Of a stretch of DNA of 32,000 nt, positions 3,057 through 26,066 are shown in pieces (positions within the stretch are counted from its first letter, which is position 1; each line of letters starts with the position of its first letter). The stretch is from Candidatus Pelagibacter sp. HTCC7211 (GTDB lineage Bacteria; Pseudomonadota; Alphaproteobacteria; Pelagibacterales; Pelagibacteraceae): NCBI RefSeq assembly GCF_000155895.1, contig NZ_DS995298.1, positions 1,170,001 through 1,202,000 on the forward strand, written 5' to 3'. Position numbers and translations under genes: made by a program. A model generated the notes under the pieces. That model did not search any database. It was not told the origin of the DNA and saw nothing but the letters and a program-made list of their open reading frames with translations.

Positions 3057-5462
3057 TTAGTTTCTCATTTTTTGACCACTTGGATCGTAAAGTGGTTCTT
3101 TAATTACTGAACAATTAAATAGATTTCCATTTATCTCTACTTGAATTTTATTTTCAGACTTAATTTTATTTTGATCGATAAATGTAAATGCCACACTCTT
3201 GTTCACAAAATGTGCAAAACCTCCAGAAGTTACATAGCCAATGCTTTGATCTCCATTCATTACAGCTTCATTGTTCGTTACATCAATGTCATTTGTTTCA
3301 ACAATTAAAGGTGTAAGTTTGCTTGAGGAGCTTTCTTTTTGTGCGCTTTCTTTACCAATAAATTCTTTTTTCCAATTTATAAACATATCTAATCCAGTTT
3401 CTTTTGCAGTAAAATCTGGTCTATAATCTAACGTCCAAGCTCCCCAATTTTTCTCTAATCTCATAGACATTAATGCCCTTCCACCAAAAGGTTTAATATC
3501 AAATTCTTTTCCTGCTTCCATTAACTCTTCATAAAGTTTTAATTGATAGTGTGGTGCTACATAAATTTCATAGCCAAGCTCACCTGTAAATGAAATTCTA
3601 TTTATTATAGCTGGTACGCTACCAACGAACATTCTTCTAGAGTCTCTAAATTTAAACTTTTCATTTGAAACATCATCTCTAACGATTTTTTCTAATACTT
3701 TTCTTGAATTAGGTCCTGCAATTGACAACCCATGATACTCATCAGATCTATTTTTATAATTTAAATTAAATTTTCCTAAATGACTTTCAAACCAACGTCT
3801 ATGTATTTCTTGTGCAGCTCCTGACCCAAAAACCATAAATTCATTTTCATCTAAACAAGCTACAGTTAAATCTCCACACAATTTTCCTCTATATGATAAC
3901 ATTGGAGATAATGAAATTCTTCCAGGCTTTGGTAATCTTCCAGCCATAATATGATCTAAAAATTTTCTGGCATCAGGACCTTTAAATTCATGTTTCGAAA
4001 AGTTAGCAACTTCAATTAGCCCAACATTTTCTCTAACATTAATTACTTCTTTTGAAACATAATCATGTGATCTTGATCTTTTAATAGTGGGTTCTTCATG
4101 AGCATCTTCTTTATTGTTTGCAAACCACAAAACATTTTCTAATCCAAAGCTATCACCCATCACTGCTCCTTGATTTACAAAACGGTCGTAAAGTGCGGTT
4201 GTTTTTTGTTTTCTTCCTTTTGGAAGTGTTTCGTTTGGAAAAGTCATAATAAATCTTCGTTCATAATTTTCTGAAGATTTTACTGTTCCATATTGAGGTG
4301 ATGCATAATCTCCAAATCTTGCAACATCCATCGCCCAAACATCAATTGAAGGTTCACCATCAATTATCCACTCAGCAATACATTTTCCTACTCCTCCACC
4401 TTGGCAAAATCCTGCCATAACGCCAACTGCTACCCAATAATTTTTCATTCCTGGAACTGGACCAATTAAAGGACTTCCATCAGGACCAAAAGTAAAAGGA
4501 CCATTAACTATATTTTTAATTCCAGCACGTTCTAACGCTGGCATTCTTTCAAAACCTATCGCTAGTCTATCTTCAATATTATCTAATTTTGGCTGAAGTA
4601 ACTCATGTCCAAAGTTCATTGGGGTTCCTTCAACTTTCCATGGAGTTGATTTCGGCTCATAAGTTCCAAGCAACATTCCTTTTCCTTCTTGTCTAAAATA
4701 AATATTTCCCTCAAAATCTGTTCCTATCGGTAATCTTAGATCCCCCATTGCTTCTATTTCTGGAATGGACTCAGTGATTAAATAGTGATGTTCCATCGGT
4801 TGTACTGGGAGATTTAATCCTGCTAATTGACCAACTTCTCTTGCCCAAAGTCCTCCTGCATTAACAACAATATCAGCCTTAATATTCCCTTTATCTGTGA
4901 TTACGTCCCAAGATCCATCTTCTTTTTGTTTTGTGTCTTTAACAACTGTGTGGGTATAATACTTTCCCCCATGAACTTTTGCAGCTTTAGCAAAAGCATA
5001 AGTAACTCCCGATGGATCAACTTCACCATCAATAGGATCCCACAACGCCAATAAATATCTAGATGGATCAATTAAAGGGTTTTTCTTTTTTACTTCCTCT
5101 AGAGAAATGAACTCTTGATCAAGTCCCATGTATCTTGCTTTTGATCTTTCTCTCTTTAAATAATCAGCCCACACTTCGTTTGATGCTAAATAAAACCCAC
5201 CACTGGGTTTAAAGCCTACAGAATGACCAGACTCTTTTTCTATTTCTTTATACAGGCCTATTGTATAAGCCATCATGCGAGAGATATTTGGATCAGAAGA
5301 AATTACATGTACATTTCCAGCAGCATGCCAAGATGATCCTGAAGTCAGTTCATTTCTTTCAAGAAGAATACAATCTTTTAACCCGAACTTAGAAAGATGA
5401 TAGAGGATTGAACATCCAACTACTCCACCTCCTATAACAACTACCTTGGCATTTTTTTCCAT
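3057..5462 (-). CDS. dmgdh: Dimethylglycine dehydrogenase-type FAD oxidoreductase with a C-terminal GcvT/THF-binding domain
   Basis: N-terminal VVVIGGGVVGCS dinucleotide fold. SSWHAAG matches the covalent-FAD histidine motif of DMGDH/SARDH. C-terminal FTGELGYEIY is a GcvT signature. 801 aa, 1 nt downstream of the BHMT gene. Confidence 0.85.
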   Translation of the reverse strand: MEKNAKVVVIGGGVVGCSILYHLSKFGLKDCILLERNELTSGSSWHAAGNVHVISSDPNISRMMAYTIGLYKEIEKESGHSVGFKPSGGFYLASNEVWADYLKRERSKARYMGLDQEFISLEEVKKKNPLIDPSRYLLALWDPIDGEVDPSGVTYAFAKAAKVHGGKYYTHTVVKDTKQKEDGSWDVITDKGNIKADIVVNAGGLWAREVGQLAGLNLPVQPMEHHYLITESIPEIEAMGDLRLPIGTDFEGNIYFRQEGKGMLLGTYEPKSTPWKVEGTPMNFGHELLQPKLDNIEDRLAIGFERMPALERAGIKNIVNGPFTFGPDGSPLIGPVPGMKNYWVAVGVMAGFCQGGGVGKCIAEWIIDGEPSIDVWAMDVARFGDYASPQYGTVKSSENYERRFIMTFPNETLPKGRKQKTTALYDRFVNQGAVMGDSFGLENVLWFANNKEDAHEEPTIKRSRSHDYVSKEVINVRENVGLIEVANFSKHEFKGPDARKFLDHIMAGRLPKPGRISLSPMLSYRGKLCGDLTVACLDENEFMVFGSGAAQEIHRRWFESHLGKFNLNYKNRSDEYHGLSIAGPNSRKVLEKIVRDDVSNEKFKFRDSRRMFVGSVPAIINRISFTGELGYEIYVAPHYQLKLYEELMEAGKEFDIKPFGGRALMSMRLEKNWGAWTLDYRPDFTAKETGLDMFINWKKEFIGKESAQKESSSSKLTPLIVETNDIDVTNNEAVMNGDQSIGYVTSGGFAHFVNKSVAFTFIDQNKIKSENKIQVEINGNLFNCSVIKEPLYDPSGQKMRN

Positions 5463-5463
5463 A

Positions 5464-6504
5464 TTAATATTTGATCTCTTTATTTACTTTTTTCAAAGAC
5501 TTATCTGTTCCGTGATGAAAATGTTTGCTCATATCAGGCATATATTTCATTGAAATTGGTTTCTTTCCAATTGCAACTGACATCTCCCTGACGTGATGGG
5601 CTTCTGCTCCACAACATATACCAATAAAATTTATTTTACTTTCAACACAATCTTTAGCAAACTCTGCCATCTCGTATCGATTGCAAAATAAATTGTCTAA
5701 AGCAACAGGGAAAGCATTGCCTCCTGGAATAAGATCGCAGCCATGATCAGAAATATTTAAAAAGCCAGGTTCCTCTTCAGTTGTTCTGTAAGGAACAGGA
5801 AGTCCTGCCACATGACATGAAACTTTATCTCTAACTTTTTTTAATAATTTCATTGTCATCTCTGGTCCTCTATAACAATTCAAACCAACCAAATCAGCAC
5901 CTAGATCTTCCATCATCTTGCAAGCATCTTCAGCGCTGTGACCTTCTCTAGTTTTATCTCCTCTAGGTATTGCAAAATTACAAACCGCAATAAGTCCAGC
6001 ATCTTTTATAGCTTTTAATGCAATCTTCATTTCGTCAGACCAATTAATTGTTTCAGCAATAACAAAATCTACTCCAGCTTCTTTAGCCCAAGCAACTTGT
6101 TCCTCATACATTTGTTGACATTGTTTATGAGTATTCGCATCATTAGGATCAAATACATTTGTATTTGCTACATCTCCACAAACCATCAGATCTAGATCTT
6201 TAAATTCAGCAGCTGCATCTTTTGCAATTTTAAGAGCATTCTTTTGCATTGGTTCTAACAAATGCTCTTTACCTATTATTCGAAGTTTTTCTCTATGCCC
6301 ATAATATGTAAAAGCTTGAACAACATCTGAGCCAGCCCTAATAAATTCTCTATGTAATTGAGTTACTACCTCCGGATGTTCTAAAACAACTTCTGGAACA
6401 AAAGGTCCTGCTGACAGATATCCCCTTCTTTCCATTGCAAAAAGATACCCTTCAGCACACATTATTGGGCCTTCATTTAATCTAGTAATAAGATCTTTTT
6501 TCAT
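5464..6504 (-). CDS. bhmt: Betaine-homocysteine S-methyltransferase (Hcy S-methyltransferase domain)
   Basis: Hcy-methyltransferase TIM-barrel layout. Zinc cysteines sit in GLNCYRGP and GICCGA, the positions expected for BHMT/MetH-type Zn sites. Adjacent to dmgdh. Confidence 0.8.
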   Translation of the reverse strand: MKKDLITRLNEGPIMCAEGYLFAMERRGYLSAGPFVPEVVLEHPEVVTQLHREFIRAGSDVVQAFTYYGHREKLRIIGKEHLLEPMQKNALKIAKDAAAEFKDLDLMVCGDVANTNVFDPNDANTHKQCQQMYEEQVAWAKEAGVDFVIAETINWSDEMKIALKAIKDAGLIAVCNFAIPRGDKTREGHSAEDACKMMEDLGADLVGLNCYRGPEMTMKLLKKVRDKVSCHVAGLPVPYRTTEEEPGFLNISDHGCDLIPGGNAFPVALDNLFCNRYEMAEFAKDCVESKINFIGICCGAEAHHVREMSVAIGKKPISMKYMPDMSKHFHHGTDKSLKKVNKEIKY

Positions 6505-6515
6505 AATTTATCCTC

Positions 6516-7709
6516 TCATTTAGTTAAGTTAGTTGCAACCCACTTATGAAACATCAAAGTAGGAGTATCCATTACTGGGGAAAAATTTCCTCCATTATAA
6601 GCAGGGGAACTTCGACCCTTTTGCATTCCTTCTATTGCAGCAACATCTTCACTCATAACTTCTTGCCAAAATGCAAAATTTTTTTTTCTTATTTCTTTAT
6701 ATTCATCACTTGAAGCACTTTCATCTCCAACGTAATACATTTCAAAATGTTCTCTTGTATTGTTATTTGACAATGGTTCTAACCAAAATGCATAAAAATG
6801 ATCAACATGTATTCCAAGCATAACATTTGGAAATAGAGAAACATATTCTGAATTTTGATAAAGATCATTGGGCCAATTTGGAAATATTGAAAGTTTTTTA
6901 TTACCATCAAACTGTTGACTATATTTATTACTGCCTTGTCCTGAAAAAGTTTCTGCAAGATCTTCTATATGATAATGGTCTTTTAAATTTGAAACTCTAT
7001 TTAATTCTGGATGAACCCAGGGTAAGTGATAGCTTTCACAATAATTTTCAATTGCTAATTTCCAATTACTTTTTACTTCCATATTAAAATAACCAAAATC
7101 TCTAGCATGTCTTATTAACTTTTGATCCTCTCTTGATATAAACTTTGACCATTGTTTTTCTAAAGGATCGATACTTTGCTCAAAATCTTTTTTGTTTTTA
7201 TTGACATTAATGAATATTAAATCCATCCATACATGTGTTGAAATTTCTTTAAGATTGCTTTTTGATTTAATAAAACCTTCTGTCTCATGTATATTCATTC
7301 CGCCAACGTGAGGTGTGGCTATTAATTCACCATTAAAATTATATGACCATGAATGATATGGGCATCTTATAGTGTTCTTTATTTTGCATTCTTCTTTTAC
7401 AAGTATCATGCCTCTATGACTGCAAACATTATGAAATACTCTAATCTTATTATTTTTATCCCGTAAAATTAACAGTGGAATTCCCATTAAATTAAATGGT
7501 TTTGCATCGCCCACTTCGGGTACTGAACTGGAAACACCCACAACTATCCAGTTATTGAAAAAAACTTTCTCTCTTTCTATTTTAAAATATTCATCACTTA
7601 AATAACATTCATTAGGAAGACCATTTGCTTCATTAATTGATTTTTTTGTAGCTTCGATTTTATCTAGATCGACAATTCTTGATAATACATCTAAATTTTG
7701 TGACTTCAT
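6516..7709 (-). CDS. Rieske [2Fe-2S] non-haem iron oxygenase, alpha/catalytic subunit (substrate unknown; quaternary-amine oxygenase suspected from context)
   Basis: Rieske motif CSHRG...CPYHSW. Mononuclear iron motif NYCESYHLPWVH (HxxxxH). First gene of the co-directional array. Confidence 0.85.
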   Translation of the reverse strand: MKSQNLDVLSRIVDLDKIEATKKSINEANGLPNECYLSDEYFKIEREKVFFNNWIVVGVSSSVPEVGDAKPFNLMGIPLLILRDKNNKIRVFHNVCSHRGMILVKEECKIKNTIRCPYHSWSYNFNGELIATPHVGGMNIHETEGFIKSKSNLKEISTHVWMDLIFINVNKNKKDFEQSIDPLEKQWSKFISREDQKLIRHARDFGYFNMEVKSNWKLAIENYCESYHLPWVHPELNRVSNLKDHYHIEDLAETFSGQGSNKYSQQFDGNKKLSIFPNWPNDLYQNSEYVSLFPNVMLGIHVDHFYAFWLEPLSNNNTREHFEMYYVGDESASSDEYKEIRKKNFAFWQEVMSEDVAAIEGMQKGRSSPAYNGGNFSPVMDTPTLMFHKWVATNLTK

Positions 7710-7801
7710 TAACCTCCTTTTCTATTTAATTTAGTTTTACTTAAATTTAGAAAATTGGGTTTTTCTTACGATTCTCTGATGATTATTTGTTGAAATACAG
7801 G

Positions 7802-7835
7802 TTGACAATTCAAGCTGTATGAAAATCCATATACA
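7802..7835 (+). promoter_or_regulatory. Candidate promoter for the metF-like/GcvT-family pair (perfect -35 hexamer only)
   Basis: Perfect TTGACA at 7802-7807. Only poor -10 candidates (CATATA/ATATAC) lie 19-21 nt downstream. Confidence 0.25.
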
Positions 7836-7863
7836 AATTCTGGACCAATCCAAAACATAAAAA

Positions 7864-7890
7864 ATCGTACCATAAAATGGGCAAAATCAA
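7864..7890 (-). promoter_or_regulatory. Candidate sigma70-type promoter for the Rieske-bhmt-dmgdh array (extended -10)
   Basis: The minus strand reads TTGATT-N15-TACGAT, with TGG immediately 5' of TACGAT giving an extended -10 of the form TGnTAcgAT. This would leave a leader of about 145 nt. The spacer is short, the genome is AT-rich, and it overlaps a 35-codon ORF, so the call is weak. Confidence 0.25.
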
Positions 7891-7960
7891 AATAAAATTC
7901 TATCTACAAGTGGTTCTTTAAGGTAGCTGAATTTCTTTGACAGCATTTTCAAATAAGATA

Positions 7961-8704
7961 ATGATCGAGAAAAAAATGAATTTTTCACTAGAAATTGGTC
8001 CTAAAACTGACCTTGAAACGTTACCTCCGGTTAAGGATGTTTACGTCACAATGCTACCTGGTGGAGACTATAAAGAGACTTCAGATCAATCTATTGAACT
8101 TGTAAAAAAAGGTTTTAATCCTGTGCCTCATTTTCCCGCAAGATCAATTGAAAACGATTCTGAGCTAAAAGATTACGTTTCAAGATGTAAAGACGGTGGA
8201 GTAAAACAAGCATTAATAATTGGTGGTGGTAGAGAACCAATGGGAAAATTTGATAGTTCATTTCAACTTTTAGAAACAGGTTATTTTGAAAATATGAAAA
8301 TAGGAATTGCTGGGCATCCCGAGGGAAGTCCTGACATATCCGATACCGATTTAGACAAAGCTATGATGGATAAAAAGCCTTATGCTGATTATATAGTAAC
8401 TCAGTGGTTATTAGACCCTCAGCCTATCATAGATTTTATTTCTAAACAAAGCGTACCAGTACATGTTGGAATTACTGGACCTCTAAAAATATCAAGCTTA
8501 ATAAAGTTTGCTAATATTGTTGGAGCAAAAAATTCCTTAAATTTTCTTAAATCTAATTTTAGTAAGGCGTTAGATTTATTGAAACCTAAAGACCCTAATG
8601 ATTTAATTGGGAAAGTTAAATCGCATACTGATAACTTCCACATTTATACATTCGGCGGCTTGAAGGAAACAAACAAGTGGTTGAAGGAGAATAGTTATGT
8701 CTAA
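7961..8704 (+). CDS. metF: Methylenetetrahydrofolate reductase family protein (MetF-like)
   Basis: By-eye matches to MetF blocks: FSLEIGPK, VYVTMLPGG, PHFPAR, ALIIGGG, IAGHPEGSPD, YIVTQWLLDP, VHVGITGP, FHIYTFGG. The track start at 7937 is a TTG. In-frame ATGs at 7961 and 7976 are more likely, so the start is uncertain by up to 39 nt. Confidence 0.75.
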   Translation: MIEKKMNFSLEIGPKTDLETLPPVKDVYVTMLPGGDYKETSDQSIELVKKGFNPVPHFPARSIENDSELKDYVSRCKDGGVKQALIIGGGREPMGKFDSSFQLLETGYFENMKIGIAGHPEGSPDISDTDLDKAMMDKKPYADYIVTQWLLDPQPIIDFISKQSVPVHVGITGPLKISSLIKFANIVGAKNSLNFLKSNFSKALDLLKPKDPNDLIGKVKSHTDNFHIYTFGGLKETNKWLKENSYV

Positions 8705-10055
8705 TGAATTTGACTATACTAAACTAAAACATGTTACTTCAGTTGATCAATCAGATCGTGCAGTACCATATAATTTAAGACAAAGTGGGCCAACTAAAGT
8801 TGAAATGCTTATCTCAACAAGGGTAAGAAAATCACCTTATTGGCATTTATCAATGCAGGCAGGTTGTTGGAGAGCAACTGTTTACAATCGTATTTATCAC
8901 CCAAGAGGATATGTAAAACCAGAAGATGGTGGAGCAATGGTTGAGTATGATGCAATTGTAAATCACGTTACTATGTGGAACGTTGCTGTTGAAAGACAAA
9001 TAAGAGTTAAAGGTCCGGATGCAGAAAAATTTACAGACTATGTAATAACGAGAGATGCAACAAAAATTTCTCCGATGAGAGCAAGATATGTGATTTTGTG
9101 TAATGCTTATGGAGGAGTATTAAATGATCCAATCCTACTTAGAATTGCTGAAGATGAATTTTGGTTTTCATTATCAGACTCTGATATTGGTATGTACCTT
9201 CAAGGTGTAAATGCTGATGGAAGATTTGATTGTACAATTGAGGAAATTGATGTCAGTCCTGTGCAGATACAAGGACCAAAATCAAAAGCTTTAATGAAAG
9301 ACCTTTGTGGAGATCAAGTTGATTTTGATAATATGCCTTTCTACGGCTTAGCGGAAGTAAAAGTTGGTGGAAGAAGTTGTATAATTTCTCAATCTGGTTT
9401 CTCTGGAGAAGCTGGATATGAAATTTATCTAAGAGACTCGACTTTATACGCTGAGGATATGTGGAATGCTGTTCTTGAAGCAGGTAAAAAACATAGCCTA
9501 ATGGTTATTGCTCCTGCTCACCATAGAAGAATTCAAGCTGGAATTCTTTCATGGGGTCAAGATATGGATCAACAACACAATCCTTTTCAGTGTAACTTAG
9601 GTTATCAAGTTTCTTTATCTGGAAAAGGTGAATGGTCTAAAAAAGGTGACTATGTCGGTAAAGCTGCATTAGAAAAAATGGGTGCTGAACTTAAAGATGG
9701 CAAAAAACCTTATAAGCTTCAATTAGTTGGACTTGAATTAGGTGGAAAACCTATTGAAGAGTACGCTCCTGATTTTTGGCTAGTATCACCAGAGAGTGGT
9801 GGAGATCCTGTTGGATTTATAACTTCTCCTTGGTATCACCCAGAAAAAAAACAAAACATAGCAATGGGATATGTGCCGTTTGATGGAACATTAAATGCAA
9901 ATGGTTTTCCAAAAGGTAAGGTTGGAACTAAATTTAAAGTTCACCTGCCTGAAAAATACTCTGACACACCAGGAACTCCTGTTGATGCAGTTGTAGTAGA
10001 TATTCCATTTAAAGAGTCTTTCAACGCAAATACTAGAGAAGTTGTAAAAGGCTAA
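8697..10055 (+). CDS. GcvT-family THF-dependent aminomethyltransferase/demethylase (LigM/DesA/DmdA-like)
   Basis: FSGEAGYEIY GcvT signature and a VKGPDA motif. The 452-aa length and long N-terminal extension resemble aromatic O-demethylases LigM/DesA more than my recollection of DmdA (about 370 aa). It overlaps the metF-like stop by 8 nt. Confidence 0.75.
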   Translation: MSNEFDYTKLKHVTSVDQSDRAVPYNLRQSGPTKVEMLISTRVRKSPYWHLSMQAGCWRATVYNRIYHPRGYVKPEDGGAMVEYDAIVNHVTMWNVAVERQIRVKGPDAEKFTDYVITRDATKISPMRARYVILCNAYGGVLNDPILLRIAEDEFWFSLSDSDIGMYLQGVNADGRFDCTIEEIDVSPVQIQGPKSKALMKDLCGDQVDFDNMPFYGLAEVKVGGRSCIISQSGFSGEAGYEIYLRDSTLYAEDMWNAVLEAGKKHSLMVIAPAHHRRIQAGILSWGQDMDQQHNPFQCNLGYQVSLSGKGEWSKKGDYVGKAALEKMGAELKDGKKPYKLQLVGLELGGKPIEEYAPDFWLVSPESGGDPVGFITSPWYHPEKKQNIAMGYVPFDGTLNANGFPKGKVGTKFKVHLPEKYSDTPGTPVDAVVVDIPFKESFNANTREVVKG

Positions 10056-10064
10056 ATTTATTTT

Positions 10065-10096
10065 GGGGGAGCAAATTAAAGCTCCCCCATTTCTTC
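10065..10096 (+). terminator. Rho-independent terminator-type hairpin
   Basis: GGGGGAGC (10065-10072), 8-nt loop, GCTCCCCC (10081-10088), then the T-rich ATTTCTTC. It starts 10 nt after the GcvT-family stop codon and is the only GC-rich hairpin I found in the window. Confidence 0.75.
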
Positions 10097-10097
10097 A

Positions 10098-10199
10098 ATG
10101 ACAAAGGGTTTTTTGATAGTAATTTGCATTATCATTGCGATTGCTTTAATAGTATTCCCATTATTAGTTTCATATAAAGCACAAAAGAATAAAAAATAA
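10098..10199 (+). CDS. 33-aa single-pass membrane mini-protein (below the ORF-track cutoff)
   Basis: My translation: MTKGFLIVICIIIAIALIVFPLLVSYKAQKNKK, a hydrophobic helix with a basic C-terminal tail. Its TAA overlaps the ATG of the next gene (TAATG at 10197-10201). Confidence 0.45.
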   Translation: MTKGFLIVICIIIAIALIVFPLLVSYKAQKNKK

Positions 10200-10744
10200 T
10201 GTTTGCCGAATTTTTAAGTATAGTTTTTAAATCTATAAAATTAGATAAATCTTTATATTCAGATAATAAAAATTTTGGTGAAGCTTCTATTTATTTTGCT
10301 GGGATAATAATGATTTTAGATGGGATCGCGGGTGCTGTTGCTGCTAACACAGTAATTAAAACAGCAGTTGCTATGTCTGGACTTACATCAATTTTAACTT
10401 GGTTAGTTTGGGCAATCTTTATTTATGTGATTGGTGTTAAACTTTTTCCAGACAAAAAAGCAAAGGTTCCTTTTAAAAAAGTTTTAACAGCAGTTGGGTT
10501 TGCTCATGCACCTGGTTTACTTAGATTTTTCGCAGTAACACCCAATATGATGATACCGATTATTTTTCTGACACAATTTTGGATTTTTGCAGGATTAATT
10601 ATTTCTACAAAGCAAGTATTGGGCTTAAAATCTAACATAAAATCTTTTGGTATAGTTTTTTTATCGTTTTTAATTATAGCATTCTTATCAATTTCTTTTG
10701 TAATGAGCAGAATGAATATGTTGCCTGTTAGCCAGATTAGCTAG
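10199..10744 (+). CDS. Yip1-domain-like polytopic membrane protein
   Basis: 181 aa with about five hydrophobic segments. The layout resembles bacterial Yip1/DUF1282-type membrane proteins. No catalytic motifs seen. Confidence 0.5.
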   Translation: MFAEFLSIVFKSIKLDKSLYSDNKNFGEASIYFAGIIMILDGIAGAVAANTVIKTAVAMSGLTSILTWLVWAIFIYVIGVKLFPDKKAKVPFKKVLTAVGFAHAPGLLRFFAVTPNMMIPIIFLTQFWIFAGLIISTKQVLGLKSNIKSFGIVFLSFLIIAFLSISFVMSRMNMLPVSQIS

Positions 10745-10908
10745 ATTGGAAAAATAGTCTTAGATACCCTACAAGACGAACAAAGCTTATAACTAGTTAA
10801 AATTAAATTTTGAGACACACTTTCATCTTCTTTTTTGCATTCTTCACAAACATTATCTAGTTCTTTGATAATTTCAGAATTATTGCTTTTGTCTGATTCA
10901 TCAGTCAT
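10741..10908 (-). CDS. 55-aa acidic mini-protein with a CxxC...CxxC (zinc-ribbon-like) motif
   Basis: MTDESDKSNNSEIIKELDNVCEECKKEDESVSQNLILTSYKLCSSCRVSKTIFPI. I trimmed the start to the ATG at 10908, which overlaps the upstream gene's stop by 8 nt (ATGACTGA). The longer track ORF (to 10953) would overlap that gene by 53 nt. Confidence 0.5.
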   Translation of the reverse strand: MTDESDKSNNSEIIKELDNVCEECKKEDESVSQNLILTSYKLCSSCRVSKTIFPI

Positions 10909-11509
10909 TATCTGTAAGGCCAGCTCCTGCTCCACTCTGTTTAAGACTATCACTTTCTTCTACAAATGTATTTTCAGCTAATTTGTATAAACTATTCCAA
11001 TCTGAGTCTGTAAAGTTGTCTTTGTTATCTAAAAGTTTTACCTCTAAATTATTTGAATGTTTACTGAAGTCCTTATTAAATCCATTCGAAAAAATATTTA
11101 CATTTAAGTTAAGTAAAATTTCATTTTGATCAAATTTAACATATATTTTTTTTCCACTTACTTCAGATGCTCTGCTTAAAAATGACAAAAAAATTATTGG
11201 ATACGCAATCTTTTTAAAGTGTATCGTGTCAAAATTCTCTATTGCTTTAATTTGATCTAAAAAACTAACACCAAGTGTAATTGGACAGAAAGCTTCTTGA
11301 GCAATATTTTTCTCACTGATTGAATTTAAATTTTCAAATTTTTTTATTTCTCTTTCTTTGTAATACTGATTTAAATTTTTTATTCCTGCTAATCCAAATA
11401 ACTCTAATAATCTTATAGACTTTCCAACTTCCTCAGAAACTCCCCAAGAAAAACCTACTGCCCTACTAGCTCTTTTAACTGCAGTTTCAATTTCACTTAA
11501 AGATCTCAT
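10901..11509 (-). CDS. Hypothetical 202-aa protein (from memory resembles ~200-aa DUF3726-type alphaproteobacterial proteins; unverified)
   Basis: Intact ORF 2 nt after the upstream stop. N-terminus SLSEIETAVKRASRAVGFSWGVSEEVGKSIRLLELFGLAG; Gly/Ala-rich acidic tail SGAGAGLTDND. No catalytic motif recognised. Confidence 0.6.
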   Translation of the reverse strand: MRSLSEIETAVKRASRAVGFSWGVSEEVGKSIRLLELFGLAGIKNLNQYYKEREIKKFENLNSISEKNIAQEAFCPITLGVSFLDQIKAIENFDTIHFKKIAYPIIFLSFLSRASEVSGKKIYVKFDQNEILLNLNVNIFSNGFNKDFSKHSNNLEVKLLDNKDNFTDSDWNSLYKLAENTFVEESDSLKQSGAGAGLTDND

Positions 11510-11511
11510 TA

Positions 11512-13179
11512 TTAATTGTTAGCTTTATAAACCCATTGCTCGTCATAGTTTTTTAATTCATTTGGTAGTGGCGCACCTTGGAACATACAAATTCTTAGCC
11601 ATTTATCTGATCTAGGGTCAAATTTTAACGCACCAAAAAAAGATAATTTAAGTCTAAGCATATCAATAGGGACAATACTTTTACCAATTGTATTGTCTTG
11701 AATCTCAGAATATGGAAATTTTTCAATTATAAAAGCTCTTCTAACAACATGTCTTAAATCTGAGTTCGATGATAAAAATTGAGCAATTGTTGTGTCATTT
11801 TTTAAAGAAAGTAATTGCTCATAAAGTTTTTTTATATCCCTTGCTATAGCTAGAGGTTGTTCTAATTCAGATCCATGTTCTTCAAACCTGTCAGCCATCC
11901 TAGGCTCTTCTTTGTTTTTTGATATAAACCAGAAATTTTGATTATTTTCTTTTTGATCAAAATTTATATCCAAAATATTTGGATATCTAGTTTTAATAAT
12001 TTCCATTAATTCTTGCGTTGTTCGATTGGTTGGAATATTAAAATACTTTTCTTCTTCAGAGCTCATATTGCTAACTAAAGGCTCGGTAATATCGTTATAA
12101 GGCTCCATCATTATAGAGACTACGTATTCTATACATTCCTCGCATGAATTCTGCTCTAACCACAAATATATCTGATTAAATGGAAACTCAGACTGAAAAT
12201 CAAAATCATTTTCAACATGATTGATCAATTTTTTAACATCTCTTAATAATAATCTAATTTTATTCTGTTGATATTCACTGTCTGTATTCCAGCTAGTAAT
12301 ATTTTTTAATGATTTTTTTAAACAATCTTTAAAAAGTTGACTGTCTTGATTTTTAACAATTTCAATTTCTCTAATCTTTTTTAATGCTATTTCTCTACTT
12401 AAAATCCAATTATTTAACAATGTTGGGTGATTAACTATAAAAGGAGCCATACCAAGACCAGTAGAGTTTCCAATACCTAAATTTTTACAAATTTGATTAT
12501 CTAGTTTTACTGCTGTTTTGGGATTTATATTATGAGCAACATGGTTTACCTGATCAAACGTAAATTGTCTTACTAAATAAACTAACATCATTTCTAATCT
12601 AAAAGGACCGTTAATTTCCTCTCTATTTTTAATCCGAAATCTATCTGCTAGACCAAATTTTCCAGATCCATAAACTGCTGTAGTTCTGTATAAATAACCA
12701 ACTTTTGACAATAAATCTAAATCAGGTTGTTTACCCTCACTTAAATTTTTCACAACATGATTAAAAACTCTAATAGACTTATTTGCTCTTGATAAAGTTA
12801 ACTCTTTAAATGTAAGTCTACCTATTTCTTGTTTAGGGACCTCGTTTTTTAATCTTTTAATATCATCTTTACTGGGTACACCGTCATAAAGTGTAAAAGC
12901 AGCATCCCACTTAGTAGCTATTACTCTATCGGATCTTTCTTCATCTTCAATCTTATTGGCAAAACAAACTAATGAATAAACTCTATCTTTTTTTTTAAAT
13001 GAATATATTGCCTCTCCATAACCATCTTTATCTAAGTTAAATAAATCTCTATTATAATCCCAATCTTTGAATTCACTTAAAAAACTTCTTAAAAAAGATA
13101 GTTTTGATTGGTGAAATGATCCTAATCTAGATAATTTCATTATTGTGTTTGGGTCTCTTAATTCAACTTTCATAATCAA
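11512..13179 (-). CDS. Hypothetical 555-aa protein, no family recognised
   Basis: Long intact ORF in a stop-codon-rich AT genome. Its ATG overlaps the M19 gene stop (ATGA, 13176-13179). No P-loop, Rossmann or metal motif that I can name. Conserved-looking blocks: RTTAVYGSGKFGLADRF and NLGIGNSTGLGMAPFIVNHP. Confidence 0.65.
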   Translation of the reverse strand: MIMKVELRDPNTIMKLSRLGSFHQSKLSFLRSFLSEFKDWDYNRDLFNLDKDGYGEAIYSFKKKDRVYSLVCFANKIEDEERSDRVIATKWDAAFTLYDGVPSKDDIKRLKNEVPKQEIGRLTFKELTLSRANKSIRVFNHVVKNLSEGKQPDLDLLSKVGYLYRTTAVYGSGKFGLADRFRIKNREEINGPFRLEMMLVYLVRQFTFDQVNHVAHNINPKTAVKLDNQICKNLGIGNSTGLGMAPFIVNHPTLLNNWILSREIALKKIREIEIVKNQDSQLFKDCLKKSLKNITSWNTDSEYQQNKIRLLLRDVKKLINHVENDFDFQSEFPFNQIYLWLEQNSCEECIEYVVSIMMEPYNDITEPLVSNMSSEEEKYFNIPTNRTTQELMEIIKTRYPNILDINFDQKENNQNFWFISKNKEEPRMADRFEEHGSELEQPLAIARDIKKLYEQLLSLKNDTTIAQFLSSNSDLRHVVRRAFIIEKFPYSEIQDNTIGKSIVPIDMLRLKLSFFGALKFDPRSDKWLRICMFQGAPLPNELKNYDEQWVYKANN

Positions 13180-14141
13180 ATTGATTTATAAAAATTGTAC
13201 CAATTATTTCCAAGTATTCCTTGTGTCTCACTGTCTGAAAACCCTGCTTTTTTAAGACCATTTTCAATATTTTTAAATCCTCTAGCATCCTCAAACCATT
13301 CTGGTTGTTTTGGAAAACCAGGTTTGTTTTTAGATCCTTCTCCATAATTTTTGCTTTTAGACCAAGTGCCATTTCTCATCCATTCAACAACTGTATCGGC
13401 TTGATTTAAACAAAGGTCTGATCCAATACCAATATTTTTTATTTCCATAATTTCTGCTGTTCTTGCAACCATCTCGCAAAAACTCTCAATTGTGCAATTA
13501 GTATTATTTTTTAAATGATGTGGATATAAAGACAAACCTAGCATACCTCCACTTTCACTTAATGTTTTTAACAGTTCATTAGATTTATTTCTTTTTGCAG
13601 CGTGCCAAAAAGATGGATTAGCATGAGTAATAGCTATTGGTTTTTCACTTAATTCTATTGCATCAAATGTACTTTTCTCTGCTGAATGAGACATATCAAT
13701 AACAATGCCAACTCTATTCATTTCTTTAATAACTTCACGACCAAAATTAGTTACACCACTATCTATTTTTTCATAACAGCCAGTTGCGAGTAATGACTGA
13801 TTATTATAAGTCAGTTGCATAAATCTACATCCCAACGAATGTACTTTTTCTACTAAACTAATATCATCTTCAATGGGTGAACAATTTTGAAACCCAAAAA
13901 AAATTGCTGTTTTTTTTTCAACGTTTGCTTTTTCGATATCTTTAAAATCATTGCCTAAAAAAATTAAATCTGAGTTTTCTGAAAAGAGTTTTTCCCATTT
14001 TTTAGTTTCACCTACTAACTCATCAAAATCTTCATGATAAACAATAGTTACGTGAACTGCGTCTAGATTTGCCTCTCTATTGAATTCAAAGATCTCTCTA
14101 GACCAATTACAATATTGTAGATTATCTATTTTAAAATTCAT
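13176..14141 (-). CDS. M19 (renal/membrane dipeptidase) fold amidohydrolase homolog with a non-canonical metal site
   Basis: Aligns by eye to DPEP1 blocks: VIDMSHS (His198 block), IAITHANP (His219 block), IGIGSDL (Asp288 block), MQLTYNNQS (LTLTHSCN block). However, IDNLQY replaces IDGHND and GFQNC replaces GVEGG. Confidence 0.75.
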   Translation of the reverse strand: MNFKIDNLQYCNWSREIFEFNREANLDAVHVTIVYHEDFDELVGETKKWEKLFSENSDLIFLGNDFKDIEKANVEKKTAIFFGFQNCSPIEDDISLVEKVHSLGCRFMQLTYNNQSLLATGCYEKIDSGVTNFGREVIKEMNRVGIVIDMSHSAEKSTFDAIELSEKPIAITHANPSFWHAAKRNKSNELLKTLSESGGMLGLSLYPHHLKNNTNCTIESFCEMVARTAEIMEIKNIGIGSDLCLNQADTVVEWMRNGTWSKSKNYGEGSKNKPGFPKQPEWFEDARGFKNIENGLKKAGFSDSETQGILGNNWYNFYKSI

Positions 14142-24380: not shown

Positions 24381-26066
24381 ATGAGCGATGTGAAGTCAGA
24401 TATTCAAATAGCAAGAGAAGCTAAAATGCAACCAATTAAAGACATTTTGGCTAAGATTAATGTGCCAGACCAAAGTGAAACATTCAGTCCTATGGGTCGA
24501 CATATCGCAAAAATTAATTTGGAATACCTAGATACTTTAAAAAATAAACCAGATGGTAAATTAATTTTAGTCACTGCAATTACACCTACTCCTGCTGGAG
24601 AAGGTAAAACTACCACATCAGTTGGATTAAGCGACGGTCTTAATAAAATTGGCAAAAAGTCAATTGTTTGTTTAAGAGAACCAAGTCTTGGTCCATCTTT
24701 TGGAATGAAAGGTGGTGCAGCTGGTGGTGGTTATGCTCAAGTTGTTCCAATGGAACAAATCAATTTACATTTTACAGGTGACTTTCATGCAATTACTTCG
24801 GCGCATAATTTACTTTCAGCTCTCATAGATAATCATATCTATTGGGGTAATAAACTTAACATAGATATTAGAAGAGTTGTCTGGAAAAGAGTTATGGATA
24901 TGAATGATAGATCATTAAGATCTATTGTTGTTGATTTAGGTGGTGTTGCAAATGGTTACCCTAGACAAGATGGTTTTGACATAACTGTTGCCTCAGAAAT
25001 TATGGCTATATTTTGCTTAGCTACAGATTTACAAGATTTAGAAAAAAGAATCGGAAATATTACAATTGCATACACTAGAGATAAAAAAGCTATTTATGCA
25101 AAAGATTTAAATGCTCAAGGTCCAATGACCGTGCTTTTAAAAGAAGCGATTAGGCCGAATGTCACGCAAACTTTAGAAAACAATCCAGCTATTATTCATG
25201 GTGGACCATTTGCTAATATAGCTCATGGATGCAACTCAGTTATAGCAACGAAAGCTGGTTTAAAATTATCAGATTATGTTGTAACTGAAGCAGGTTTTGG
25301 TGCTGATCTTGGTGCAGAAAAGTTTTTGGATATAAAATGTAGAAAATCTGGAATTAAACCAGATTGTGTAGTTATTGTTGCAACTATAAGAGCACTTAAA
25401 ATGCATGGAGGAGTTGCAAAAGATGATTTAAAAAAAGAAGATGTAGAAGCATTAAAAAAAGGATTAATTAATTTAGAAAGACACATTAATAATACAAGAA
25501 AATTTGGACTCCCAGTTACCATTGCTGTAAATCATTTTATTACTGATACAGATAATGAAATGAATGCACTGCTTGATTTTTGTAAAACTCAAGGAGTAAA
25601 AGCTTCAAAATGTACACACTGGTCTAACGGTGGAGAAGGAACAAAAGAACTAGCAAATAATGTAGCCGAAATCTGTGAGGAAAATAAAAATACTTTTAAA
25701 TACTTATATGAAGACAAATTATCATTGTTTAAAAAAATAGAAAAAATCGCTCAAGAAATTTATCACGCAAGTGATGTAGTTGCTGATACTAAAGTTAGAC
25801 AACAATTAAAAGATTTTGAAGAGAAAGGTTATGGCAACCTTCCAGTATGTATTGCTAAAACTCAATACAGCTTTTCAACAGATCCAAATTTAAAAGGAGC
25901 GCCAACTGGTCATGTTTTGCCAGTTAGAGAAGTAAGATTATCATCTGGTGCTGAATTTATTGTTGTTGTCTGTGGAGAAATAATGACAATGCCAGGGTTA
26001 CCAAGAGTACCAGCGGCAGATTCAATTAAGTTAAATAAAGATGGAGAGATAGAAGGTTTATTTTAA
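24381..26066 (+). CDS. fhs: Formate-tetrahydrofolate ligase (10-formyl-THF synthetase)
   Basis: [16 protein letters not shown]-loop signature. 561 aa, with full-length similarity to FTHFS as I remember it. Confidence 0.95.

Follow-up and report, generated by a model that had tools for sequence, protein, structure and literature searches.

Which compound donates a methyl group to the GcvT-family protein encoded beside a MetF-like gene in SAR11 bacteria, and where does that methyl group go? The pair was analyzed within a 32,000-nucleotide stretch of the Candidatus Pelagibacter sp. HTCC7211 genome, hereafter the window. Sun et al. 2011 had already described it as SAR11_1264/1265 (PMC3160333), and in strain HTCC1062 both of its mRNAs drop together in stationary phase (PMC5069961). 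Our preferred reading, to which we assign a probability of roughly one half, is that the pair encodes a predicted corrinoid- and O2-independent glycine betaine:THF methyltransferase, here AMT, and a predicted methyl-THF oxidase.

Under this proposal, the two-gene operon would serve to take a methyl from an onium compound. The DmdA-fold AMT would move one methyl from its substrate, most likely glycine betaine, to N5 of tetrahydrofolate (THF), giving 5-methyl-THF and, from betaine, dimethylglycine. The type 4 MetF-like flavoprotein would then oxidize 5-methyl-THF to 5,10-methylene-THF with an acceptor other than NAD+. FolD and Fhs may process the C1 unit further, yielding formate and ATP, and the other two methyls would be removed by DMGDH and the products of nearby sox genes. 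Such a route would be independent of cobalamin, oxygen, and homocysteine, running parallel to BHMT, which would supply methionine. We consider it an even bet that SAR11 and many other marine and soil bacteria demethylate betaine for energy mainly through a single-subunit betaine:THF N-methyltransferase with a type 4 MetF, BHMT serving methionine only.

Structure and conservation of the gene pair

The MetF-like open reading frame lies on the forward strand with alternative starts at 7937, 7961, and 7976 and a common end at 8704. The ATG at 7976 is a likelier start than that at 7961, which would give 247 aa, because most database orthologs have 242 aa; the gene is thus placed at 7976..8704 (242 aa). 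The AMT gene (SAR11_1265 type) follows on the same strand at 8697..10055. The original prediction had described an 8-nt overlap between the two genes, a 452-aa GcvT-family product carrying the motif FSGEAGYEIY, and an fhs gene 14 kb away, and all three were recovered. An ATG at 8697 and a TAA at 8702-8704 place the sequence ATGTCTAA (8697-8704) in both genes, and AAGGAG at 8684-8689 precedes the AMT start codon by 7 nt, so that signals for translational coupling occupy 8684..8704 (+). The 452-aa product contains GCV_T and GCV_T_C domains (Pfam) as well as the motif. The formate-THF ligase gene, fhs, is found at 24381..26066 (+), 14.3 kb downstream, and in other bacteria shares one operon with the AMT/metF pair. 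A terminator-like hairpin at 10064..10089 (+; 9 pairs, 7 of them G-C, with a T-rich tail) closes the operon after two genes.

Conservation was counted in Pelagibacteraceae genomes sampled one per species. A MetF-like gene stood immediately upstream of the AMT gene at 78 of 78 loci having enough flank, and the overlap read ATGTCTAA at 78 of 80; the pairing is conserved and is not due to chance. A complex prediction for the two proteins scored 0.00, which weighs neither for nor against their association.

Upstream, a divergent intergenic region (7710..7975) is common to the pair and a Rieske-bhmt-dmgdh operon, which provides pathway context with a BHMT-like gene (5464-6504, −) and a DMGDH-like gene (3057-5462, −). 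Against GbcA, the Rieske gene (6516-7709) reaches 123 bits, versus 670. No riboswitch or known RNA family was detected by Rfam in the whole window or in the 7650-8050 leader. A tie to the neighboring homarine (hom) operon at 10741-14141 was set aside, since outside SAR11 the AMT orthologs do not have hom genes nearby and the homarine ring is opened before demethylation, N-methylglutamate being removed by a sox-like dehydrogenase (PMC13236597).

Family placement of the two proteins

The AMT model (AF2, pLDDT 92.7) has the three-domain GcvT-type fold of the DmdA structure 3tfh, which is its best Foldseek match (3tfh_A, E=6e-39, TM 0.94 by target, rmsd 2.2). A likeness to LigM/DesA, proposed in the original prediction, did not hold up: AMT scores 38.5 bits against 580 for LigM (and 43.2 against 800), and its fold reaches a TM of only 0.58 to 5x1m. 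The DmdA model NF009133 is the best NCBIfam model for AMT, but the score of 231.8 bits is well under the equivalog cut-off of 410, and the genome's own two true DmdA genes, with which AMT shares 27-30% identity (BLASTP), score 553 and 514. Nor did AMT cluster tightly with DmdA, an outcome that the original prediction had named as decisive for a known DMSP demethylase. In a quick maximum-likelihood tree, it fell in a 12-row clade with Marinobacter, Photobacterium, and Salinarimonas orthologs (99% SH-aLRT), and the true DmdA genes formed a separate clade with 100% support. AMT is also below the cut-offs of both GcvT models (148 bits versus 300 and 129 versus 236). As had been predicted, it is longer than DmdA and has a distinct N terminus, namely an ordered extension of ~35 aa with the motif R..P.NLRQSG; a GGxM insert is a further difference. 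Of the 21 clade members, 19 carry Asn at position 95, where 15 of 15 DmdA-like rows have Asp; we take this position to map onto Asp97 of the E. coli T-protein, presumably catalytic and next to N10 of THF. Phe235 of AMT corresponds to Trp in the majority of DmdA and DmdA-like rows in the comparison.

The MetF-like protein narrowly misses the gathering threshold of the Pfam MTHFR model (PF02219; 23.7 bits, or 21.7 in the genome scan, versus 24), its family having diverged too far for this model. Its sole PDB sequence match is the SYK-6 MTHFR 7xg9 (phmmer, E=3e-31), and its best fold match is 7xg9/7xlf (Foldseek, E=9e-17; next entry, 1e-12), placing it closer to S6MTHFR than to E. coli-type MTHFR in both searches. 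The modeled barrel is complete, with 8 strands; across 13 aligned homologs, a Glu (position 6) and a Gln (in a TQ motif) are invariant. Type 4 MTHFRs are marked by Leu48-Pro49 (with Arg78), Phe215/Cys219, and Pro268-Phe-Gly-Gly-Leu (PMC11868366). The protein keeps L27-P28 (loop beta2-alpha3), the Phe215 equivalent, and FGGL, and it shows the changes Arg78 to Ser, Cys219 to Val, and Pro268 to Thr; the Pro268 and Cys219 positions vary in other demethylase-linked MetF homologs too. Gly takes the place of E. coli Asp120. S6MTHFR oxidizes CH3-THF and ignores NADH (PMC11868366), and we infer that the MetF-like protein is a methyl-THF oxidase of this type, which would bind FAD and run in the oxidative direction. 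The matches to 7xg9/7xlf thereby lend support to the predicted combination of a THF-dependent methyltransferase with a SYK-6-like oxidative MetF.

The original prediction had also considered that this gene might be the only MetF in the genome and serve methionine synthesis. The first part stands, as the genome scan found no other MTHFR-like gene. The second does not: genome searches of HTCC7211 found neither MetE nor a MetH-type or MetH-size pterin-binding protein (see also PMC12478193), so the MetF-like protein cannot serve methionine synthesis. As the sole MTHFR-like protein, it must also handle the 5-methyl-THF made by DmdA, and the SAR11 pairing alone would therefore not tie it to AMT. Outside SAR11, 24 of the 29 best MetF-like homolog loci have a gene for a methyl-THF-forming enzyme within 1.5 kb (20 MtgD-like, 2 LigM, 1 DmdA-like, and 1 AMT; the LigM genes are true ones, at 776 and 658 bits). 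Genetic coupling to a THF-dependent demethylase thus holds for the MetF-like gene in the overlap, in the Pelagibacteraceae synteny, and at these loci. A canonical MetF is also present elsewhere in the AMT-bearing genomes tested.

Gene neighborhoods and the identity of the methyl donor

Two homolog searches and a related-locus search returned Pelagibacteraceae only and were used for synteny; contexts beyond this family came from genome and representative searches. AMT orthologs outside SAR11 (42-70% identity) occur with metF and fhs in dimethylglycine/sarcosine catabolic clusters, among DMGDH or dgcAB, soxBDAG, sdaA, and GbdR or BetI. In three Marinobacter-like species, GbdR (512 bits versus 480), sdaA, and a DMGDH-like gene accompany fhs-metF-AMT, with metF missing from the AMT locus in one of the three. 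The Photobacterium cluster reads soxBDAG-AMT-metF-fhs-pepD-hp-dgcAB-etfAB, in which AMT-metF-fhs fills the place of gbcA, gbcB, and purU in Vibrio clusters (PMC12093977). Salinarimonas and a gammaproteobacterial MAG have a GbdR-like gene and AMT-metF-fhs-DMGDH, with or without soxBDAG. Genes for DgcAB or DMGDH-like proteins lie near AMT in G748, G734, G645, G127, L145, and L146, and a BetI-type repressor is fused to MetF in G649 and G462. GbcA (at cut-off) and MttB/MtgB were both absent from seven AMT-cluster genomes of five genera. The BHMT model NF005718 is insensitive for these genomes, SAR11 BHMT itself reaching only 99 bits, and they may encode BHMT-type enzymes. Together, these neighborhoods suggest glycine betaine as the leading candidate donor.

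Several observations weigh against betaine. Within 10 kb, dimethylglycine genes are missing from about half of the non-SAR11 contexts (G776, G600, G750, G466, G649a, G513, G024, and L142); in G024, AMT lies between transposase and TIR genes with none of the pathway genes, and the G024, P0244, and P0242 contexts are uninformative. Other amines can be substrates of DMGDH-like paralogs. BHMT is already present in SAR11, which leaves no pathway hole in HTCC7211. There is also a chemical objection. To our knowledge, methyl transfer from a quaternary amine directly to N5 of THF is unprecedented; the betaine demethylations that we know of use Co(I), a zinc thiolate, or oxygen, and the only precedent we know of in the GcvT/DmdA fold, DmdA itself, has a sulfonium donor.

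AMT might instead demethylate another quaternary amine or methylated osmolyte onto THF, such as choline, proline betaine, beta-alanine betaine, a carnitine-type compound, or trigonelline, with MetF still acting as a methyl-THF oxidase; we regard this as unlikely but deserving weight. The fold and the MetF coupling are equally compatible with it, the contexts lacking dimethylglycine genes favor it, and choline too is sensed by GbdR- and BetI-type regulators. GMC-oxidoreductase and 3HCDH genes near the L146 AMT, as well as the many uncharacterized GCV_T paralogs of SAR11, point the same way. The recurrent neighbors, namely dgcAB with pepD-hp, soxBDAG, and sdaA, nevertheless follow from glycine betaine and not from the products of other betaines.

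We find it rather doubtful that AMT is a sulfonium-specific, DMSP-type demethylase, whether a DmdA isozyme or an enzyme for dimethylsulfonioacetate or DMSOP. DmdA is its closest solved structure and best NCBIfam model, a sulfonium is a chemically easy donor, and DMSP sustains SAR11. Against these points stand the sub-cut-off DmdA score, placement in a clade separate from this genome's two true DmdA genes, and annotated ortholog neighbors that contain no dmdB, dmdC, or dmdD and recurrently represent betaine catabolism under GbdR/BetI.

It is improbable that AMT works like GcvT, trapping, as methylene-THF, the iminium or formaldehyde formed when dimethylglycine or sarcosine is oxidized, with MetF acting reductively to feed methionine. 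Membership in the GcvT family would fit, as would proximity to DgcAB, which has no listed GCV_T-type folate domain; but AMT also adjoins DMGDH, which bears its own folate domain, and the Asp conserved in the compared DmdA and DmdA-like rows is replaced by Asn in nearly all clade members. The GcvT scores under cut-off, a MetF of the NADH-blind, oxidizing type, and the lack of a methyl-THF-using methionine synthase in SAR11 argue likewise. Least credible is removal of the methyl of methylmercaptopropionate, the second methyl of DMSP, on which Sun et al. speculated in 2011 from dmdA relatedness and similar abundance (PMC3160333), as thioethers donate methyl groups poorly and the orthologs sit in glycine-betaine clusters away from DMSP pathway genes.

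The first betaine demethylation in SAR11 has been credited to BHMT alone (PMC12478193), which would bind each betaine consumed to one homocysteine. If the betaine reading is correct, a folate route without B12, O2, or homocysteine would lift this stoichiometric problem and assign a role to a SAR11 core gene noted since 2011. It would also close the first-step gap in the betaine catabolism of Marinobacter, Photobacterium, and others without GbcAB and MtgB, and betaine turnover in ocean metagenomes would gain a new marker gene. The concept of a type 4 MTHFR plus a THF-dependent demethylase would reach beyond lignin degraders to the ocean's most abundant bacteria. AMT would be the first GcvT-fold enzyme to demethylate a quaternary amine, and its direct N-to-N transfer of a methyl group would be chemically novel.

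Comparison with known systems

AMT most resembles DmdA of P. ubique (3tfh/3tfi/3tfj), with which it has the three-domain fold in common. DmdA transfers a methyl to N5 of THF to give 5-methyl-THF in a reaction presumed to be redox-neutral, and the same is presumed for AMT. The two differ in size (369 aa for DmdA versus 452 aa) and in gene neighborhood. The MetF-like protein is closest in sequence and fold to S6MTHFR of Sphingobium lignivorans SYK-6, encoded in the ligM-metF-ligH operon. Both genes adjoin that of a THF-dependent demethylase, and fhs (= ligH) belongs to the pathway in either case. The MetF-like protein is ~45 residues shorter, however, is partnered with a DmdA-type AMT instead of LigM, and, unlike S6MTHFR, is the sole MTHFR of its genome.

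The net reaction proposed for AMT and the MetF-like protein is that of MtgBCD and MetF2 (SPO1862) in Ruegeria pomeroyi, in which glycine betaine and THF yield dimethylglycine and methyl-THF, followed by catabolic MetF oxidation (PMC12478193). The nearest non-SAR11 relatives of the MetF-like protein (36-39% identity) adjoin an MtgD-like pterin-binding gene at 20 of 29 loci. MtgBCD has three components, including a corrinoid protein, whereas AMT is a single GcvT-fold protein, and MtgC is absent from SAR11 (PMC12478193). The Rieske glycine betaine monooxygenase GbcAB and BHMT also carry out the step from glycine betaine to dimethylglycine that is proposed for AMT; GbcAB depends on O2 and releases formaldehyde, BHMT depends on homocysteine, and both are unrelated to AMT in fold and chemistry.

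The overlapping gene pair and its setting

The window covers bases 1,170,001 to 1,202,000 of a single-contig genome (1,456,888 bp, about 30% G+C, 99.9% complete), whose closest relatives in homolog and related-locus searches were all Pelagibacteraceae. ORF calling placed both genes of the pair on the plus strand, with the MetF-like (MTHFR-like) frame ending at 8704 and the 452-aa GcvT-family frame, here called AMT, starting at 8697. Their overlap reads ATGTCTAA (8697-8704), and AAGGAG lies 7 nt upstream of the AMT ATG. Because most database orthologs of the MetF-like protein are 242 aa long, its start is more likely at ATG 7976 than at 7961, the possible start originally proposed. Among 80 Pelagibacteraceae loci, taken one per species, the MetF-like gene was directly upstream of AMT in all 78 with enough flanking sequence, and the overlap was kept in 78 of the 80; the noted gene overlap is thus a genuine feature that has been conserved.

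AMT is followed by a G+C-rich hairpin that ends in a run of T (10064-10089), and no Rfam family was matched in the 250-nt leader or anywhere in the window. Just past this terminator (10098-10744, plus strand), a mini-ORF (33 codons, single helix) runs 1 nt into the start of a gene for a 181-aa multi-pass membrane protein without a Pfam match, which is kept in 74 of 80 SAR11 loci. The adjoining minus-strand operon (10741-14141) matches recently described homarine catabolic genes, encoding an M19-like HomC (13176-14141) along with a protein of 555 aa and one of the DUF3726 type; the operon is kept downstream of the pair in 46 to 61 of 80 SAR11 loci and has no link to AMT orthologs elsewhere. A Rieske-bhmt-dmgdh operon and the pair point away from each other as divergent transcription units; sox-type genes and fhs are located farther downstream. 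The Rieske oxygenase heading that operon (6516-7709, minus strand) was rejected as the known betaine monooxygenase, as it resembles GbcA weakly (123 bits versus 670) and no reductase gene was found near it.

The pair is already known from published work: in 2011, Sun et al. noted that SAR11_1264 (metF) adjoins SAR11_1265, "a probable AMT with unknown substrate," and speculated that the latter might demethylate methylmercaptopropionate (MMPA) (PMC3160333). In stationary phase, both mRNAs drop in concert by 5- to 10-fold (PMC5069961). The literature searched held no publication assigning a substrate, and what is new here is the narrowing of the candidate substrate only.

A SYK-6-like MetF and its direction

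The MetF-like protein scored 23.7 bits on the Pfam MTHFR model (cut-off, 24) and is encoded by the genome's sole MTHFR-like gene. The analogy originally drawn with Sphingobium SYK-6 appears exact for this protein. Among all PDB sequences, its sole match was the SYK-6 MTHFR (7xg9/7xlf, E = 3e-31), which was also the best fold match of its AlphaFold model (pLDDT 88.8, eight strands). The SYK-6 enzyme oxidizes CH3-THF and hardly reacts with NADH, and the "type 4" MTHFRs, defined by three motifs, accompany THF-dependent demethylases (Yu et al. 2025, PMC11868366). Compared with SYK-6 MTHFR, the SAR11 protein keeps the Leu-Pro of loop beta2-alpha3, Phe215, and the Phe-Gly-Gly-Leu of loop beta8-alpha11, whereas Cys219, Pro268, and Arg78 are changed to Val, Thr, and Ser; Gly stands where the E. 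coli enzyme has Asp120. With motifs partly kept and partly changed, the protein likely belongs to type 4.

Gene partners provide independent support for this placing. When 400 genomes of the phylum were sampled, 24 of the 29 best MetF-like homologs had a gene for a methyl-THF-forming enzyme within 1.5 kb, encoding LigM in two cases (776 and 658 bits; cut-off, 580), a DmdA-like protein in one, AMT in one, and an MtgD-like pterin-binding protein in the other 20. The pairing of an MtgD-like gene with MetF is how MetF2 is arranged in Ruegeria (PMC12478193). The nearest non-SAR11 relatives are in a Rhodobacteraceae-like family (f8, 19 of 19 genomes; loci L021-L047). A small PF13769 'Virulence_fact' gene also adjoins the homolog in 21 of the 29 loci.

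A search of the genome detected no MetE, and its sole pterin-binding domain sits in a 350-aa frame, too short for MetH, in agreement with the published lack of MetE, MetH, and MtgBCDE in SAR11 (PMC12478193). The MetF-like enzyme therefore could not feed methionine synthesis; of the alternative that it is the genome's only MetF and needed for methionine, the first half stands and the second falls. This gene content makes the oxidative direction originally proposed the only sensible prediction. As the sole MTHFR, however, the enzyme must also take methyl-THF from two true DmdA genes, so adjacency in SAR11 alone does not prove a dedicated MetF-AMT partnership.

AMT and the DmdA-type proteins

AMT carries GCV_T and GCV_T_C domains. 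The suggestion of a LigM/DesA-type aryl O-demethylase did not hold, as AMT scored 38.5 bits on the LigM model (cut-off, 580) and 43.2 on the DesA model (800), and its AlphaFold model (pLDDT 92.7) superposes on LigM with a TM of 0.58 versus 0.94 on DmdA (3tfh). DmdA, the DMSP:THF methyltransferase, was also its best NCBIfam model, at 231.8 bits versus a cut-off of 410. A quick maximum-likelihood tree, built from 49 proteins with SH-aLRT as its only support measure, did not cluster AMT with true DmdA genes, which formed their own clade, and placed it in a separate, 99%-supported clade with orthologs from Marinobacter-like genomes, Photobacterium, Parasalinivibrio, Marinobacterium, Sedimenticola, Woeseiaceae, Salinarimonas, and one alphaproteobacterial genome. 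This clade is marked by about 35 extra, ordered residues at the N terminus that carry an R..P.NLRQSG motif, a GGxM insert, Asn95 (Asp in 15/15 DmdA and DmdA-like rows compared), and Phe235 (Trp in most DmdA-type rows compared). We take the Asp at position 95 to be the one that neighbors folate N10 in enzymes of the GcvT family. On sequence and model, then, AMT would work like DmdA, yet appears to be neither DmdA, GcvT, nor LigM.

The genome encodes 14 GCV_T-domain proteins, including two true DmdA (553 and 514 bits) and a third DmdA-like paralog (G000:C1:1141407-1142486, L012) slightly below the DmdA cut-off (389 bits versus 410). Fourteen such genes in 1.46 Mb, most without a proven substrate, is an exceptional investment in folate-linked demethylation. 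Within a Marinobacter-like genome (G259), the closest relative of the third paralog (L039, 384 bits) is directly upstream of a second type-4-like MetF, and the two may form another demethylase-MetF module with its own substrate.

Glycine betaine as candidate methyl donor

AMT orthologs are patchy: 5 of 400 genomes sampled from the phylum and 12 of 400 Gammaproteobacteria carry them (the latter tally including one unpublished genome, absent from all other results). They usually adjoin a MetF belonging to this divergent type, whichever gene comes first, and often fhs as well; the AMT-bearing genomes tested also keep a canonical MetF elsewhere. In about 10 of about 19 independent lineages, genes that act later in glycine betaine catabolism are no more than 10 kb away from AMT. 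Three Marinobacter-like species have a regulator passing the NCBI GbdR equivalog cut-off (512 versus 480 bits), sdaA, a DMGDH-like gene, and fhs-metF-AMT, although one of these species lacks metF at the AMT locus. A GbdR-like regulator and AMT-metF-fhs-DMGDH are shared by Salinarimonas and a gammaproteobacterial MAG, with soxBDAG present or absent; dgcAB-etf (genomes G748 and G734) or DMGDH-like genes (genomes G645 and G127, loci L145 and L146) lie near AMT elsewhere. Next to two further orthologs, one frame holds both a MetF-like domain and, N-terminal to it, a BetI-type TetR repressor that scores 135.5 bits on the BetI model of NCBIfam (cut-off, 118) (L170:11309-12805, minus strand, 498 aa, genome G649; L171:8324-9853, plus strand, 509 aa, genome G462). 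These are small marine gammaproteobacterial genomes of one family, and such a regulator-enzyme fusion is unusual. G649 has two AMT-clade copies, of which one, 70% identical to SAR11 (L169:9945-12410, minus strand), adjoins a canonical GcvT-like gene (GCV_T, 218 bits), not MetF. In seven AMT-cluster genomes of five genera, neither GbcA at cut-off nor an MttB/MtgB-family protein was found; BHMT-type enzymes may be present.

We propose that AMT would take a single methyl group off an onium compound, with glycine betaine the most probable donor, and pass it to THF; that the MetF-like flavoprotein would oxidize methyl-THF to methylene-THF with an electron acceptor; that FolD and Fhs would complete the oxidation to formate, with a gain of ATP; and that DMGDH and sox enzymes would remove the remaining methyl groups. 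We give this full scheme even odds (about 0.5). Against it, we know of no precedent for an N-to-N transfer in which a quaternary amine gives up its methyl group with neither a corrinoid nor a zinc thiolate, half of the AMT contexts are uninformative, and SAR11 has BHMT, so that this genome has no pathway hole. The weaker prediction of a methyl-onium:THF methyltransferase with a methyl-THF oxidase is considerably safer, and we hold it with good confidence; the original reading of a THF-dependent demethylase coupled to a SYK-6-like MetF was thus essentially right, with the demethylase corrected to DmdA type. If glycine betaine is confirmed as the donor, the accepted view of how the most abundant marine bacteria break down betaine would change. 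A Photobacterium has the order soxBDAG-AMT-metF-fhs-pepD-hp-dgcAB-etfAB, where AMT-metF-fhs occupies the place in which gbcA, gbcB, and purU normally stand in the Vibrio/Pseudomonas betaine cluster (PMC12093977).
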